Positions 38,487 through 47,445 of a stretch of 64,000 nt of DNA are shown piece by piece. The notes below the pieces were generated by a model. That model was not told the origin of the DNA. It saw only the letters and a list, made by a program, of their open reading frames with translations, and did not search any database. The position numbers were made by a program, and so were the translations under genes. The DNA is from Ostreococcus lucimarinus (lineage: Eukaryota): assembly GCA_000092065.1 (NCBI GenBank), contig CP000585.1; one strand, written 5' to 3'. How positions within the stretch are numbered: the stretch's first letter is position 1; the number at the start of each line of letters is the position of its first letter.

Positions 38487-38557
38487 AAACCGAACCGAAC
38501 CGAACCGAACCGAACCGAACCGAACCGAACCGAACCGAACCGAACCGAACCGAACCA
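38487..38557. repeat. (AACCG)n pentanucleotide microsatellite, ~14 units, in the DnaJ/BCCIP bidirectional promoter
   Basis: aaaccgaaccgaaccg...cgaacc seen directly. Coordinates +/- 3 nt. Confidence 0.85.
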
Positions 38558-41134: not shown

Positions 41135-41665
41135 ATGGCGAGCGTCTCTGGAGCACTTCACCGCGTTCCAAAACTGTCTCCGAGAAACCTGGCCCCCGGA
41201 TCGCGCGAGGCGTCGAAGAACGTTGCGGGGCGTCAAAGCGTTGTCGCGAACATCTTCAAGAAGAATAAGGTACGCATTATCTCGATTTGTGATCATCACG
41301 GCGATTGGAAGCGTAACAACCTTGACAACAGGAACCTGACTGGGATGCGATGGAACGCCGACCGAGAACCGTTTCGGAAGAGATAGGCCGACGCCAATTT
41401 GCTAATCGACGGGCGAACAACGGGAAAGATAGGAAAGATCTGTACACAGACAATTGGGACGGGTAAGACAACTTTGGCAGCCAGCATTCACTTGCAGCCG
41501 CGGCGCTTGTTCAATTAAATAAAACTTGGTATTAAATCTTTTTGCAGGAGTGAATACAAGGGCAGTTCCTTCAATATTTTGAGCCTCGTCGCTGCGCTCT
41601 TCGTGCTCGTCCCGCTCGGGTTATTAATATTCGCGTACACATCGTACGGTACACTTTGGGGGTAA
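41135..41665 (+). CDS. Candidate small single-pass membrane protein with a presequence-like N-terminus, two exons around a ~290-nt AT-rich intron; acceptor ambiguous
   Basis: Exon 1 (frame of ORF 41102..41386) MASVSGALHRVPKLSPRNLAPGSREASKNVAGRQSVVANIFKKNK ends at a GTACGC donor (41270). Downstream is a polypyrimidine tract plus TTTTTGCAG (41541-41547). The first AG would give an immediate stop (gag tga). A second AG 13 nt later (caag, 41559-41560) opens in phase 0 onto GSSFNILSLVAALFVLVPLGLLIFAYTSYGTLWG*, a clear TM helix, with the stop at 41663-41665. Exon-2 coordinates read by eye. Confidence 0.3.
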
Positions 41666-42800
41666 TGAGACACTGGAGTAATTACTTGTGCGAACGGATA
41701 TCAATTTTGTAATTAAATGAAAGCATGCGTGCGTAAATGGGACAGCATCGAAGCGTCCATCCACATAGATGTACTCTGCTCGAGACATTTGTCGTTCGTA
41801 TTCGACGCTTTTCTCGCCGCGACGAATGATAACATTCTACGACGCGCTGCGACTAACACACATCGTAAGCGTGCCTGAGAGTGGAATTAAATTAAATTAA
41901 ATTATTTATCGTAAGTTTCTCGCACACTTCGCGCGTGATATCGACGTATGATGTTTGTGCACCGATGATTACGTGACTCGACCGCGCGCGTGTCGAATTT
42001 CGCCCAAACTATTCGACGAATGCTCTTTTTTGTGATTTGGGATTAAATAATTAAATCAGTAGATATTTCGCATCGTCTGACATGGACGTGTTCCTTAGCG
42101 TCATGGCGTGCGATTCGCGCCAGAGTCTCTGAGTTCGTGCATGGTACTGTCTGTGTCAATCTTGACGTGCTCAGAGCGCGATTAACGCGCTTTTTGACGA
42201 TGAAGTCTTGAGCTTTGTTCGAGTTTTGCAATATTCATTTAATTGTTTATGTGACGAACCATGAAGCAAGACAGGCGTTGATTGAATCGTTTTCCAAATG
42301 TATGGTCGTCGTAAAATAAATAACTGATCAGTCACTCACTTCTGCGATGCTATTTCTTAACGTGCGCGCGTGTATCGCTGTTTTTCAATGTTGCCCGGGT
42401 GAAATAAATAGACATTCGCTTTGCAGAGCGAGCGCCGCAACGCGAAATGTTGACGCCTCAGGAGCGCGCGATTCGATATGCGAACGACTTCTGTATTTAT
42501 TTCAAGTTGATTTGAGTGTTCTCGACCGATTTCGTCGGCCGTGTCGTTTTCGTTCCGACGTGCCCCTCGAGGCCAAGGCGAAAGAAAAACTATCACGAGA
42601 GGAAGATGAAGTGCTGATCGATCGGCGACTACAGATACAGCCTCGCGCGCGACAAAAGACGCGCGAGTTGAGTGGTGAACGCGCCCTACTGTTTGGCAAG
42701 CATGGTTGCTCGCGCCGTTGACTTTTGAACTTGCATTCCTGCACACACGTCGGCTATTCGAAGCGTGAATCGTACGTAGAAAAGATTTGGCGGGAAAAGA
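41400..42800. other. AT-rich island (~1.4 kb, visibly lower GC than the rest of the window) containing an (AATTA)4 repeat near 41887; no convincing ORF
   Basis: Seen directly. It includes the putative intron and 3' end of the small TM gene and the whole upstream region of the HA-repeat gene. It is the only extended non-coding stretch in the window. Confidence 0.6.
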
Positions 42801-42810
42801 TTTAGCGGGA

Positions 42811-44505
42811 ATGAGTGCAGCGCTGCTCAGCGGCGTGATGTTTCCTCGACGTTGCGCTGGCGTGCGATTTGATCGTAGATGTGTCGCATCAGCGCGTACT
42901 CGCGTGGCGCTTCTTCCGCTTGCGTCCGCGCACGGCGACAAATCAAATTCACCCGACAGGCGCGCAAGGATCAAGCGCATCATCAACGTGCGGCGTCCTC
43001 GCAGACAACACGCGATAACCGATTTGGTCGAGATGGAGTCAATAGAGACGGCCGAAGATATCCTTGCGACTCGTCAACCCGCTGAATTTCAGAAAAAAGC
43101 CTCCGTTGGTAGACTTGAGGAGCTGGTCGCGTTTTATGAGCTGTACGGGCATTCGACGCCGCCCGCCGGAACATCCCTCTCCAACTGGGTTAAAAAGATG
43201 CGCACGATGAAACGCCGTGGTGAGCTTGGGCAGGACGTCATACTATCATTGAATGCGCTCGAAATGGACTGGGAACCGCTGCAGAAGCGGAGATTCGCTC
43301 GATTAGAAGAATTACAAGCGTTCAAGGCGAAGGAAGGCCACGTTCAAGTTCCAGTCGGCGGCTCGCTAGAGCGGTGGGTCAGACGCATGCGCACACTCAA
43401 ACGCCAAGACAAATTGGCTGAAGACATTGTACAAGAATTAGATAAGTTGGGAGTGATTTGGGAGCCGAACGTTACCAAGAAGAATCATAGCGACGAAACG
43501 TTTGAGTCTCGCCTTGATGAACTCAAGGCGCTCGTCGCTTCAGATGGCAAGGTGAAGAGGACAAATCAGTATGAACCAGGAATGAAAACGTGGTTGTATC
43601 ATCAGCAACGGTGCTTTCGAGAGGGAAAGCTAAGTAAAGATAAGATTCAGGCGCTGAGAGACGTGGGTGTGACGCTCAAGATGACGCAGCGCGTCTCTTG
43701 GGACGCGCGACTGATGGAACTCATCGAGTTCAAGCGAATTCACGGTCACTGCAACGTCCCTGCCACATGGCGACACAATAAAGAATTAGGTTCGTGGGTG
43801 GGCACGCAGCGAAAGTACAAGCGCACCGGCAAATTATCTGATGAGCGCATCTCGGCGCTCACGTCCGTCGGCTTTGAATGGGAGCCAAAAAAGGCGCTTT
43901 CGCGCGGTGTGCGAAGCAAGGTTTCTCCGTGGACTGTATCGAGCATGTCATCCCAAAGAAAGGGTCCAAACGTGCAGATCAACTGGATAGGCGGTGAGGA
44001 TAAGAAACCACCGAGCAATGAAACGTTCACGTGGGGGCGCGCTTCGGTGAACTACGAAGAGAAGCAACAAATTGTGTTCAATGAAATCGAGAAGTGGTGG
44101 AAAGACGGTGCTTCCGAGAAGTTGAGCCCGCAAACTAGCATACGAGGGATGCGCTTAAATCATCGTTTGAAGATTGGCAAGAACGTCAACTTCAAGCCGG
44201 ATATATTGTTGGAGATTGTCTCGGTGACGGATGAACAGACGAGCACGTGGGGCCTAATTGTCGAGGTCGACGAGTTCGGTCATCGAAGAGGTAGCAAGAG
44301 CTACGTTAACGAGGAGTCGAGAATGAGCGAACTTCAAAAGGCTTTGGACGTGCCCATCAAATTCGTGCGATTTAATCCAGATCCGACCGAGGAAGATGAT
44401 CGTGAACTCGAAAACCGCATGGGAGGACTTCTTCAACACCTGAACGAAGCCGTCGCGCATCCGCCCATCCGTGATTTAGAAGTCTCTTATATCGCGTACG
44501 ATTAG
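42811..44505 (+). CDS. Helicase-associated (HA, PF03457-like) repeat protein (4 repeats) with a C-terminal Vsr/DUF559-like restriction-endonuclease-fold domain
   Basis: Four ~65-aa units with the HA signature W..F..L..L..F....GH..VP....LG.WV..QR......L......L..LGF.WEP (e.g. LQKRRFARLEELQAFKAKEGHVQVPVGGSLERWVRRMRTLKRQDKLAEDIVQELDKLGVIWEP). C-terminus PDILLEIVSVTDEQTSTWGLIVEVDEFGHRRGSKSYVNEESRMSELQKALDVPIKFVRFNPD resembles the D...EVD..H...R...RF core of Vsr/DUF559-type nucleases. Listed start 42787 is TTG; ATG at 42811. Confidence 0.75.
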   Translation: MSAALLSGVMFPRRCAGVRFDRRCVASARTRVALLPLASAHGDKSNSPDRRARIKRIINVRRPRRQHAITDLVEMESIETAEDILATRQPAEFQKKASVGRLEELVAFYELYGHSTPPAGTSLSNWVKKMRTMKRRGELGQDVILSLNALEMDWEPLQKRRFARLEELQAFKAKEGHVQVPVGGSLERWVRRMRTLKRQDKLAEDIVQELDKLGVIWEPNVTKKNHSDETFESRLDELKALVASDGKVKRTNQYEPGMKTWLYHQQRCFREGKLSKDKIQALRDVGVTLKMTQRVSWDARLMELIEFKRIHGHCNVPATWRHNKELGSWVGTQRKYKRTGKLSDERISALTSVGFEWEPKKALSRGVRSKVSPWTVSSMSSQRKGPNVQINWIGGEDKKPPSNETFTWGRASVNYEEKQQIVFNEIEKWWKDGASEKLSPQTSIRGMRLNHRLKIGKNVNFKPDILLEIVSVTDEQTSTWGLIVEVDEFGHRRGSKSYVNEESRMSELQKALDVPIKFVRFNPDPTEEDDRELENRMGGLLQHLNEAVAHPPIRDLEVSYIAYD

Positions 44506-44670: not shown

Positions 44671-45534
44671 TTAATCAAGGCAAGCGGCGGCGATAAAGAG
44701 CGACAAAATGCCAAACTCTGAGACAATGGTTGATGGAGAAGAGATCCCGGCGAAAGGAACGATGTCTACGCGTAGCCACCCCTGCACGGCGCCGCCGACG
44801 ACGGAGCCGACGACGAGGGCGCCAAACGCCAAAGCCGCGGCGCGTCCTATGCTCACGCGCTTCTGGTTCATGAACCACACCGTGGCGCCGAGCGCGGCGG
44901 CTATTTCAAGCCCGGTCGGGTTCTCTACGCCTTCCGGCTGCGCGAAACCTTGCAACAACGTCACGAGCGCGAGAGCGCCAAAGAGTGCGCCCGCTCGAGT
45001 CGTCGTCTCTCGCGACGGCGCCGCGAACCGCGGTCCCGCGGGAAGAGACTTCCCAGCCTCGCGCGCCCACGGCGGTAACGACGCCTTGATCTTATCAACC
45101 GCCGGCACCACATCGGCGTATTTCACTTCGTTCTTCACGCTCTCTCCCTTCGTTCGTCGGTTGAAAGACTTCATGAGCAGCACGTCGTACGCCGCCTCGA
45201 CTTCGCCTCGCTTGATTTCGTCTTCCGCGTATTTTTCGAGCATGTCCTTGTGCGCGCGCACGAGTTCATCGCTCGACGCGTCGGGTCGTAATCCGAGCAC
45301 CGCGTTCGCGCGCTGCGCGTCCATCCCCACCGACGGGTTCGGGTTCTCGTTCGACGCTCGCACCGCGATCGTCGACGCGCGTCGCGCGCGATTGCCGCGA
45401 TGGCGTTCGACGCGGTGCGCTTTGGTCGCGTCTCCGGCGTCGCGGCGGCACCGCGCGTGGCGATTGACGCGCGAGGACGACGACGACGACGACGACGTCG
45501 CCGCGCACGTCATCGCGCGCGACATCACGAGCAT
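44671..45534 (-). CDS. CPP1: CPP1/CDF1-like protein (chaperone-like protein of POR1): J-like domain without HPD plus C-terminal transmembrane helices; Ser/Arg-rich transit-peptide-like N-terminus
   Basis: NAVLGLRPDASSDELVRAHKDMLEKYAEDEIKRGEVEAAYDVLLMKSFNRR J-like domain, then hydrophobic helices (ALFGALALVTLL, AALAFGALVVGSVVGGAV, FGILSLFIAAACL). ATG (MLVMSRAMT) at 45534 by frame arithmetic. The longer listed ORF is antisense artefact upstream. Confidence 0.75.
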   Translation of the reverse strand: MLVMSRAMTCAATSSSSSSSSRVNRHARCRRDAGDATKAHRVERHRGNRARRASTIAVRASNENPNPSVGMDAQRANAVLGLRPDASSDELVRAHKDMLEKYAEDEIKRGEVEAAYDVLLMKSFNRRTKGESVKNEVKYADVVPAVDKIKASLPPWAREAGKSLPAGPRFAAPSRETTTRAGALFGALALVTLLQGFAQPEGVENPTGLEIAAALGATVWFMNQKRVSIGRAAALAFGALVVGSVVGGAVQGWLRVDIVPFAGISSPSTIVSEFGILSLFIAAACLD

Positions 45535-45861: not shown

Positions 45862-47445
45862 ATGGCGTCGAGACCGGCGATGGAGAAGCTCATCAAGCGA
45901 TGCTGCGACGCGAGCGCACCGAGCGTGGACGCGGTGGCGCTGAAAACGCTGAAGAGAACGGTGAGGAATAATGATGACGGTCTGCGGTGCGCGCACGAGA
46001 TACTGATGAAGACGATGCAATCGTCCAGGGCGAGCGCGGCGACGCGAGCGCGAGCGGTGACGACGACGAGCGAACTCTTCGAGCGTTCGCGACTGTTTCG
46101 AGAGCTCACGCTCGATCGATTGGAGGTGCTGATGAAATACACGATAGGGACGGATGATGATATTCCACTTCCCGACGTTCCCAAGGGCGAGGGCGATCGA
46201 TTGCGACAACACGCGATCGACGTTTTAGAGGCGTGGGAGGCAAAATTTAAGACGCAATACAAGCAGCTCACGTTGGCTCGCAAATTCGTCACCGAGCGCC
46301 TCGGTGATGACGCGCCGGAGGCGCGCGCGGAGCGCGCGCAGCGACTCACCGCTGAGAAAGAGCGCGAAGTGCAGTCGAAGCTTCAAAATCGATGGCTGGC
46401 GATAAAAACAGAGCTGCCCGCGTTGCTGGATGAAATCGACGACGCACGAAACGCCGCTTGCGAGTGCTTTCGTTTGCTCTTCGGTGATCGATTCGTGACG
46501 GAATTCAACGACGAATCATCGTTTGCGTCTAAAGATCGAAGTGCCTCGACGAGTACAACGGTCAATGACACGATACAATCGATGCGGGAAGACGAATGCG
46601 AAGACGACTGGGAAGACGTCGTCGACGGCGCCGTCAAGGATTGGCGGTTCGCGCAAGGTACTGACGAGCATACCACCGCGTCTTCATCCGTGACGAGCAT
46701 TGAGTTGAGAGAGACGAGTGAAAACGCACCAATCATAGAGCAACTCCGCGGTCTGTATCGCTCCACCAAGGCTCGGTATCTTCCGCGTCTCACAGAGACG
46801 CTTCAAATTTTGGGTCGAATTCAACCCGAGAACAAAGACGACGATGGAAACGTCGTGATCACTCAGACTGAGCGTTCGAGAGTGGTGAACGCCGTGAGCG
46901 AATTTAAGCAGACCTTTTCTGCGTTCGTGGAGCGATGCGAGGCGCTGAGATTGATTAAGCGTCGTCAAACCGGCGACGAGCCCGCAAACGCGAATGCGAA
47001 AGAGTCTTCGCCGACCGCCGCTGATCCGCCCCACGCGGTCGAAGAAGACGAGGATGACATAGAGTCACGTCGTGGAGCATCCAGTCGTGCCGTCGAGGCA
47101 CTTCTTGAGCGCGCGGCGAAGCGTCGGAAACGCGGGTCGAATGATGCGCGTCGCGCCAAGGAAGAAGCCGCGAAACGAGACGTTGACCGCGACGGCGAGC
47201 GACGGTCTCAGAAGATGCTGGCGAGCGAAATCAAGGCGCACAACGACGAAGTGCTCGCTGAGGCGGGATTAGACTTTTTCGAACTCGAACGAAGGCGTCA
47301 AAACGCCGCGTCTGAGACTTTGGCGAGCGATTTGATGGAGGAAGAAATTGAACGCCACAACGAGTTGACGGCGCGAGGAGCGACGCCGCGACAACGCATC
47401 GAGCGCAGCTTGAAAGAACTCAAGAGAGGAGGTAGGAATAGATAG
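45862..47445 (+). CDS. UVSSA: UV-stimulated scaffold protein A (UVSSA)-like, transcription-coupled repair factor
   Basis: N-terminal VHS-like region with LEVLMKYTIGTDDDIPLPDVPKGEGDRLRQHAIDVLEAWEAKFKTQYKQLTLARKFV and ACECFRLLFGDRF, paralleling UVSSA blocks (LELTLGTD...PLPPP...RLRQ...WNEKFG..YKKL; ESCFRLL). Basic C-terminal region. Confidence 0.75.
   Translation: MASRPAMEKLIKRCCDASAPSVDAVALKTLKRTVRNNDDGLRCAHEILMKTMQSSRASAATRARAVTTTSELFERSRLFRELTLDRLEVLMKYTIGTDDDIPLPDVPKGEGDRLRQHAIDVLEAWEAKFKTQYKQLTLARKFVTERLGDDAPEARAERAQRLTAEKEREVQSKLQNRWLAIKTELPALLDEIDDARNAACECFRLLFGDRFVTEFNDESSFASKDRSASTSTTVNDTIQSMREDECEDDWEDVVDGAVKDWRFAQGTDEHTTASSSVTSIELRETSENAPIIEQLRGLYRSTKARYLPRLTETLQILGRIQPENKDDDGNVVITQTERSRVVNAVSEFKQTFSAFVERCEALRLIKRRQTGDEPANANAKESSPTAADPPHAVEEDEDDIESRRGASSRAVEALLERAAKRRKRGSNDARRAKEEAAKRDVDRDGERRSQKMLASEIKAHNDEVLAEAGLDFFELERRRQNAASETLASDLMEEEIERHNELTARGATPRQRIERSLKELKRGGRNR

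Follow-up and report, generated by a model that had tools for sequence, protein, structure and literature searches.

An HA-repeat protein with a Vsr/DUF559-like nuclease-fold domain, and the AT-rich DNA upstream of its gene, in Ostreococcus lucimarinus

The gene and its product

The stretch of DNA analysed here, termed the window, consists of 64,000 nucleotides of Ostreococcus lucimarinus (contig CP000585.1). It is part of a compact picoeukaryote nuclear chromosome and covers 64 kb of the ∼840 kb of that chromosome. On its plus strand is a gene for a protein that has four helicase-associated (HA) repeats, followed by a C-terminal domain with the fold of the PD-(D/E)xK nucleases. An AT-rich block is found upstream of this gene. 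As a nuclear chromosome has introns, open reading frame lists made with translation table 11 need to be read with introns in mind. The features of the HA-nuclease gene are the following (pLDDT, predicted local distance difference test).

42811..44505, plus strand: HA-repeat/nuclease coding sequence, 564 amino acids plus stop, from the open reading frame list, with orthologues and near-identical proteins
42811..43080, plus strand: N-terminal leader, residues 1–90, basic, acid-poor and predicted to be disordered (AlphaFold2 pLDDT <50)
43084..43257, plus strand: HA repeat 1, residues 92–149 (Pfam HA; AlphaFold2 three-helix unit)
43279..43449, plus strand: HA repeat 2, residues 157–213 (Pfam HA; AlphaFold2)
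43480..43665, plus strand: HA repeat 3, residues 224–285, the most divergent (Pfam HA; alignment; AlphaFold2)
43699..43869, plus strand: HA repeat 4, residues 297–353, the best conserved (GHCNVPATWRHNK.LGSWV; top Pfam stretch, 294–355)
43891..44046, plus strand: linker, residues 361–412, with a short conserved SPW...W.G element (AlphaFold2 pLDDT <50)
44047..44502, plus strand: Vsr/DUF559-like PD-(D/E)xK nuclease-fold domain, residues 413–564
44200..44382, plus strand: putative active-site motif D464, E485, D487, E488, H491, R504, R520 and N522-P523-D524 (117-member alignment)

The 564-amino-acid product matches Pfam HA (PF03457) in four stretches, with E = 4.2e-52 and 174.8 bits (cutoff 28.4). 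The Pfam scan gave HA alone; there is no helicase core, and the protein is not a superfamily 2 (SF2) helicase with HA repeats. Helicase families PF00270, PF00271 and PF04851 were seen only among distant HA matches. An earlier note on this DNA, made from the letters and their open reading frames, had described a reading frame with four HA repeats and no helicase core, and this description holds. The best sequence match of the protein in the PDB is 2kta, a solved HA domain (E = 0.0012). According to PMC12191111, which cites Mills et al. (2013), the HA domain binds DNA; thus the earlier statement that the function of HA repeats is unknown went too far. By analogy, the HA repeats of the window protein would also bind DNA.

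A full-length AlphaFold2 model, built on a 13-sequence alignment, has a disordered leader (residues 1–90), four three-helix units, a low-confidence linker and a compact C-terminal domain. In the 13-sequence alignment, HA repeat 4 holds a run of invariant columns. The linker differs in length between lineages, and the leader is the fastest-evolving part of the protein, with a proportion of non-synonymous differences (pN) of 0.39–0.57. HA-repeat proteins labelled 'Chlamydia suis' were also encountered; these bear eukaryote-type domains, e.g. UBA (PF00627), and look like assembly contaminants.

When modelled alone, the C-terminal domain has a mean pLDDT of 71, with core block means mostly of 73–93 and a low-confidence loop at model residues 122–128. 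The topology is alpha-beta-beta-beta-alpha-beta, which is that of the restriction-endonuclease-like PD-(D/E)xK core, with an additional helix at the N-terminus and a helix-strand extension at the C-terminus. Conservation is complete in 117 distant relatives for E485, D487, E488, H491, R504 and R520, and reaches 90% or more for D464 and N522-P523-D524. The pattern PDILLEIV...GLIVEVDEFGH...IKFVRFNPD, from which a Vsr/DUF559-like nuclease fold had originally been proposed, is present at residues 463–525. That proposal agrees with the predicted PD-(D/E)xK topology and with the relatives of the domain, but the window protein has no significant hidden Markov model (HMM) match to DUF559/Vsr; the C-terminal domain gives no match to DUF559 (PF04480, gathering threshold 20.6 bits) at E ≤ 10.

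The relatives form a wider group. Searched against 1.84 billion representatives, a Mamiellales-type orthologue profile recovered 450 proteins (E ≤ 1e-3), the majority of which match the nuclease core alone (profile positions ∼92–198). The alignment of distant relatives comprises 117 of these 450 profile matches. N-terminal partners of the domain are EsV-1-7 cysteine motifs (36 of the 117), C2H2, BED and WRKY19-type fingers, DUF4379 treble clefs and ankyrin repeats. Sub-threshold matches among the 117 are to DUF559 (eight proteins), DUF2726 (five), NERD (two) and also AHJR-like, all of which are PD-(D/E)xK families; the top DUF559 match has E = 0.0031, and all eight members are below threshold.

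The domain is abundant in viral sequence as well. Matches to a degenerate DNA pattern for the motif number more than 120 among IMG/VR contigs; many come from giant-virus metagenome-assembled genomes (MAGs), and the motif is present in 12 of 12 contigs that were translated. In a Foldseek search of BFVD the top matches are giant-virus C2H2 or 'Endonuclease' proteins, with E values of 3e-7 to 1e-4, and the leading viruses are Heterosigma akashiwo virus, klosneuviruses and pithovirus-like MAGs. By both profile match and shared invariant residues, the window protein falls in this giant-virus/algal zinc-finger-nuclease family. Judged from these comparisons, the nuclease domain is a member of a large family that has no curated model and that spans giant viruses and algae. 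The combination of HA repeats with this nuclease domain is rare: among 1.84 billion proteins it is confined to a handful of 50%-identity clusters, comprising those of the orthologues and one further protein of 459 amino acids. A literature search found no paper characterizing HA-nuclease fusions or the EsV-1-7-nuclease family.

Proteins that are 99–100% identical to the 564-amino-acid product are present in many marine assemblies. An exact copy of the protein is recorded in 292 assembly-collection blocks, and on the 835–841-kb contigs that carry it the gene is positioned at ∼615 kb. Full-length orthologues with 57–96% identity are present in other Ostreococcus lineages; that of O. tauri is at ∼610 kb on chromosome 5 (CAID01000005.2, 835,544 bp). 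Similar HA-nuclease proteins are also found in more distant, probably Mamiellales, algae. Existing annotation does not always represent the whole gene. The protein cluster 99% identical to the product includes the O. lucimarinus CCE9901 RefSeq entry XP_001417822.1, which is a partial model of 146 amino acids with an artificial splice and without the nuclease domain, and the O. tauri orthologue is annotated as 493 amino acids in one assembly and as 567 in another. The reference annotation of the gene could thus be corrected.

The order of genes and other elements around the HA-nuclease gene (DnaJ/TPR, BCCIP, OCRE, a small gene, an AT-rich spacer, the HA gene, CPP1-like, UVSSA, PTPLA, HMA-ATPase) is the same in five Ostreococcus lineages, between which synonymous sites are saturated. 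Nine independent near-identical contigs show 99.8–99.99% identity over ∼9.7 kb around the gene, with no indel at the gene. Further copies at other loci were not found among the sequence-search matches, and repeat searches showed no inverted or direct terminal repeats flanking the gene. With one syntenic locus in five lineages and no flanking repeats, the gene does not have the properties of a homing endonuclease or mobile element. Presence or absence among strains and paralogue copy number had been put forward as a check; the common gene order and the 292 assembly blocks speak against a strain-variable insertion. Between lineages, the HA and nuclease parts have pN of 0.13–0.27 versus a proportion of synonymous differences (pS) of 0.72–0.89, and by this measure the gene is under strong purifying selection.

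A possible regulatory signal is found immediately upstream of the start codon.

42779..42808, plus strand: 15-bp tandem duplication, GAAAAGATTTGGCGG / GAAAAGATTTAGCGG, which abuts the ATG and bears the E2F-consensus-like site TTTGGCGGGAAA

The E2F-like site has the sequence TTTGGCGGGAAA or TTTCGCGCC upstream of the HA-gene ATG across four Ostreococcus lineages. For TTTSSCGS, the E2F consensus, four lineages have a site between −16 and −29 relative to the start, and the fifth has one at −249, still intergenic; as background, there are 45 TTTSSCGS sites in the 64-kb window. The start-adjacent position suggests expression at G1/S and a short 5′ untranslated region (UTR).

A proposed DNA-targeted nuclease and its alternatives

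The gene at 42811–44505 is best read as a genuine, single-locus Ostreococcus nuclear gene that encodes a domesticated, modular DNA-targeted nuclease; we place the probability of this reading at roughly 0.55. In the proposed mechanism, a basic disordered leader would precede four HA three-helix modules that bind double-stranded DNA and provide affinity or specificity for it. A flexible linker would tether the Vsr/DUF559-type PD-(D/E)xK domain to the HA array; through its acidic-histidine motif (D464, E485-x-D487-E488, H491), this domain would bind metal and cleave or nick the DNA held by the array. In giant viruses and algae the nuclease domain is usually fused to zinc fingers; here it would have acquired an HA array as its partner and become domesticated. 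Expression at G1/S via the E2F-like site would fit a role in replication, repair or recombination, whether in the nucleus or in an organelle.

Several observations count against the proposal. The pTM (predicted template modelling score) of the full-length AlphaFold2 model is 0.32, and therefore the relative placement of the domains is not given by the model. The alignment behind the C-terminal model holds 12 sequences. Searches of Pfam, PHROGs and NCBIfam gave no significant nuclease HMM match for the C-terminal domain, and PDB sequence searches, with the single sequence and with profiles of 12 and 117 sequences, gave solved nucleases at E = 0.8–0.9, which is not significant. The lysine of the canonical (D/E)xK motif is replaced, the sequence being E485-V-D487 with H491 after it. 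The E-V-D variant is typical of Vsr/DUF559, and also of non-catalytic RAP domains. Lastly, the E2F motif and the search window for it were picked post hoc.

In an alternative that is unlikely, the protein would be an organelle gene-expression factor with helical repeats and a RAP-like domain, of the FASTK or OPR-RAP type. The leader would then act as a transit peptide and the HA array as a binder of organellar RNA or DNA, with the Vsr-like domain as an RNA-processing or purely binding module instead of a DNA nuclease. The leader offers evidence for this: its first 60 residues, predicted to be disordered, are basic, acid-poor and rich in S/T/A in all orthologues (R+K 8–14, D+E 2–6, with 2–4 in Ostreococcus, and S+T+A 13–22), and a conserved V/L-x-A, then S/P-x-G-D/E, is found 30–75 residues in. 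This succession of motifs resembles green-algal transit-peptide cleavage sites. From its sequence, the leader is possibly an organelle presequence or else a nuclear targeting region. The layout of leader, helical repeats and C-terminal Vsr-like fold also parallels that of RAP protein families. However, there is no Pfam match to RAP (PF08373) even at E ≤ 10, and DNA nucleases are the better structural matches. In addition, the reported HA ligand is DNA and not RNA, and the relatives of the domain are giant-virus zinc-finger fusions whose partners are typical DNA binders.

Somewhat less probable again is a non-catalytic chromatin or transcription factor, in which the nuclease fold has been kept as a DNA-binding or dimerization module. 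Many PD-(D/E)xK domains have been exapted, and the missing canonical lysine and the want of a significant nuclease HMM are in keeping with such a role. On the other hand, the acidic/His/Arg motif is complete in the 117 distant relatives and in all orthologues despite saturated synonymous sites, which is the pattern to be expected of a working active site.

The AT-rich block and the neighbouring genes

The AT-rich block had been described in the earlier note as a 1.4-kb, compositionally foreign spacer without open reading frames. It contains, or is accompanied by, the following features.

41135–41269, 41332–41462 and 41548–41665, plus strand: coding sequence of a three-exon gene for a 127-amino-acid protein, with GT..AG introns of 62 and 85 bp
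41666..41836, plus strand: minimum 3′UTR of the small gene; an RNA-derived Logan contig is 100% identical up to 41836, where the contig ends
41837..42778, no strand: remaining non-coding AT-shifted spacer, ∼0.95 kb, without an Rfam or tRNA match and unalignable between lineages
41885..41904, plus strand: (AATTA)4 microrepeat, one of the AATTAA clusters, located by Tandem Repeats Finder
44671–45330, minus strand: CPP1-like gene, the first gene downstream of the HA gene
45862–47445, plus strand: next gene downstream

The small gene came to light when the spacer was aligned with its syntenic counterpart of the O. tauri type; the alignment has three coding-like conserved blocks bounded by GT..AG. 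When spliced by hand, its 127-amino-acid product is 100% identical over the full length to UniRef A0A7R9T639 (P0240), which is from an MMETSP transcriptome of Ostreococcus sp. 'lucimarinus'. Homologues termed 'hypothetical protein' are present in Chlamydomonas, Volvox, Tetradesmus and Haematococcus. The protein has a single predicted transmembrane segment and is hydrophobic at the C-terminus. An identification as PsbR or PsbM was ruled out; matches to PsbM (Pfam E = 1.5, PDB E = 2.4) are not significant, and the homologues are the 'hypothetical proteins' just mentioned. A 1,970-nt RNA-derived Logan contig (L009; run SRR28369158) carries the gene without both introns and reaches 41836. These data show that the small gene is expressed and that its 3′UTR extends for at least 171 nt past the stop codon.

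Two of the three exons of this transcript-confirmed gene, together with the 3′UTR, are inside the block, and the block is thus not free of coding sequence. As the small gene and its 3′UTR occupy the block up to 41836, the unassigned non-coding DNA amounts to ∼0.95 kb and not 1.4 kb. Stretch 41297–42346 is the only internal one of more than 430 bp without an ATG-initiated open reading frame of at least 100 amino acids. Apparently 'ORF-free' DNA in this genome may conceal small spliced genes, and caution is needed in its interpretation.

In base composition the block is the only AT-rich island in the window, as had been noted. The lowest-GC 1-kb window, 41501–42500, has a GC fraction of 0.444 compared with a window mean of 0.574 (standard deviation, sd, 0.059), and all 12 lowest-GC 1-kb windows fall in the block. 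The AT shift is modest, ∼2.2 sd under the window mean. The term 'compositionally foreign' does not suit DNA whose location is conserved between lineages and which harbours a spliced, expressed gene. In each of five lineages, 0.9–1.2 kb of AT-shifted non-coding DNA follows the small gene. The spacer sequence is not alignable between lineages, which is no surprise given that even synonymous sites have reached saturation at these distances; polymorphism among the nine near-identical contigs is too low to judge selection on the spacer. No RNA genes were found in the spacer by Rfam (E ≤ 1) or by a tRNA scan.

One lineage (L006, 4340–4672) has a Ribonuc_L-PSP (RidA-like) gene that separates the HA gene from the AT-rich spacer. 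In the window, tblastn found no trace of an L-PSP gene in the spacer, and a hidden copy there was ruled out. In a distant relative, which is probably Micromonas-like because its contig carries a dynein heavy-chain gene, the HA gene is 48 bp from its neighbour and the AT-rich spacer is absent. Since the L-PSP gene intervenes in one lineage and the distant relative has no spacer, there is no mechanistic tie between spacer and HA gene. The AT-rich block is an ordinary neighbour, made up of a small gene, a 3′UTR and ∼0.95 kb of promoter or spacer DNA, and is no part of the mechanism of the HA gene.

The (AATTA)4 repeat reported previously is at 41885–41904, and the O. tauri-type locus shows AATTAATTTTAATTAATTG at the position aligned with it. 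AATTAA is enriched 6–12-fold over dinucleotide shuffles in the spacers of all five lineages. In the window, AATTAA/TTAATTAA clusters are centred at 41515, 41713, 41892, 42051 and 42241, with spacings of 198, 179, 159 and 190 bp; the first two of these clusters are in intron 2 and the 3′UTR, outside 41837–42778. Across spacers, 13 of 21 cluster intervals are of 155–198 bp versus 3.1 expected by random placement, the range of 145–200 bp having been chosen post hoc. By comparison, in O. lucimarinus the nucleosome repeat is 183 bp according to a re-analysis of micrococcal nuclease (MNase) data (bioRxiv 10.1101/2025.04.21.649811). A motif-agnostic autocorrelation of AT content in the spacer has peaks near 170 and 350 bp, and the 100–300-bp peak is reached in 18 of 500 block shuffles. 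AT periodicity of ∼180/360 bp is weakly present across the whole window; among 126 tiles, those of the spacer rank 7th–21st at a lag of ∼180 and 4th at ∼350. Given that some shuffles reach the peak and the signal is window-wide, the periodicity is not regarded as unique to the spacer. The AATTAA clusters are read as AT-rich linkers of a phased nucleosome array, a strong local case of a genome-wide property.

Perhaps the spacer is a chromosomal element, a short regional centromere or a replication origin, although this seems doubtful. No other GC trough occurs in the 64 kb, five lineages have retained ∼1 kb of non-coding DNA at the corresponding syntenic site even though it cannot be aligned, and the enriched AATTAA clusters are spaced near the nucleosome repeat. 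Short AT-rich regional centromeres have been proposed for other compact algae (PMC12636532), and our literature search found no centromere map for Ostreococcus. Yet the trough is shallow (44% GC) and partly transcribed, and the spacing evidence is weakened by the window-wide periodicity, the 7th–21st rank of the spacer tiles and the post hoc range. A bolder version appears equally improbable; here the spacer, of about five nucleosomes, would be the centromere or origin of chromosome 5 and, separately, the HA-nuclease would be the first eukaryotic cellular HA-targeted Vsr-like nuclease, derived from a giant-virus-type gene.

The idea of an active selfish or homing endonuclease gene, or of a recent viral insertion, the AT-rich DNA being the scar or cargo of the element, draws on the abundance of the nuclease family in giant-virus contigs and on the GC minimum of the flanking DNA, but is largely refuted and very improbable: in five synonymously saturated lineages the gene is at the same position between the OCRE-domain gene (plus the small membrane-protein gene) and the CPP1-like gene, it has neither further loci among sequence matches nor inverted or direct terminal repeats, and the AT-rich DNA holds a conserved chlorophyte gene and is parted from the HA gene by another gene in one lineage. 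Of the suggestion that the gene is derived from a selfish element, what survives concerns the ancestry of the domain, which belongs to a zinc-finger-fused family abundant in giant viruses; the gene itself is syntenic and under purifying selection.

Other features of the surroundings may be recorded. The CPP1-like gene is on the opposite strand and convergent with the HA gene, with ∼165 bp between the two stop codons. UVSSA and BCCIP, both associated with DNA repair, are near the HA gene, and this is probably a coincidence. A perfect (AACCG)13.8 microsatellite, which reads as EPNRT repeats in one frame, is present at 38488–38556 in GC-rich DNA between the divergent DnaJ/TPR and BCCIP genes. The window also displays sharp peaks of 65–80% GC, for example at 6.5–7.5, 10.5–11.5, 25–26, 31.5–32.5, 38–39, 45–46, 51.5–52.5, 58.5–59 and 61–61.5 kb. 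Those at 38–39 and 45–46 kb coincide with divergent gene starts and 5′ coding ends, gene bodies being ∼50–55% GC, and GC skew flips sign across each peak.

Comparison with known systems

The eukaryotic HA plus Vsr-like architecture, and its domestication in Ostreococcus and related algae, are new, while both parts are of known kinds. HA repeats are widespread and poorly understood, and a conserved eukaryotic protein in which they are joined to an apparently intact nuclease supports the view of HA repeats as DNA-targeting modules. Since gene modification by homologous recombination works in O. tauri (PMC12636532), the HA-nuclease is a tractable test case. The family also ties algal host genes to giant-virus zinc-finger nucleases, and may exemplify gene exchange between host and virus followed by domestication.

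Among systems that bear a partial resemblance, the RAP helical-repeat proteins (FASTK, OPR-RAP and apicomplexan RAP) have FAST, OPR or HPR repeats, whereas the window protein has HA repeats and lacks a Pfam RAP match. The modification-dependent enzymes PvuRts1I and AbaSI give a non-significant match (E = 0.9), and their SRA-like reader domain is missing from the window protein. The homing endonuclease I-Bth0305I (PDB 3r3p) differs in that the window gene has no intron or intein context and no sign of mobility, and the DNA-binding regions are unrelated.

Bacterial HA-array proteins, i.e., SF2 helicase-HA, PLD-nuclease-HA and DUF4379-DUF559-HA, are similar in that HA arrays are carried on DNA-processing enzymes. 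PLD-nuclease-HA fusions are known from an antiphage-defence context (PMC12191111). The bacterial protein P0056 combines DUF4379, DUF559 and an HA array; in contrast to the window protein, its nuclease is N-terminal, so that the order is reversed, and belongs to a different nuclease subfamily.

Vsr/DUF559 (PF04480) proteins share the motif layout D ... E-x-D-x-x-x-H ... R-F/Y, as seen in the DUF559-bearing P0056 ('VDILI...LIIEVDGRFHH...RVMRV'), and eight of the 117 relatives of the window domain match DUF559 at a sub-threshold level. The window domain differs from them in its failure to match DUF559 at E ≤ 10, in the extra E488 and the R-x-N-P-D motif, and in the N-terminal helix and C-terminal helix-strand extension. 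It is also part of a eukaryotic nuclear gene product and is fused to an HA array.

A further likeness is to the giant-virus and algal fusions of zinc fingers (EsV-1-7, C2H2, DUF4379) with an endonuclease. These have the same domain (profile E values to ∼1e-9, Foldseek E = 3e-7), the same invariant residues, and the same arrangement of small N-terminal DNA-binding modules with a C-terminal nuclease. The window protein departs from them in having HA repeats in place of zinc fingers, and its gene has a fixed, syntenic place in the host genome, where purifying selection acts on it.

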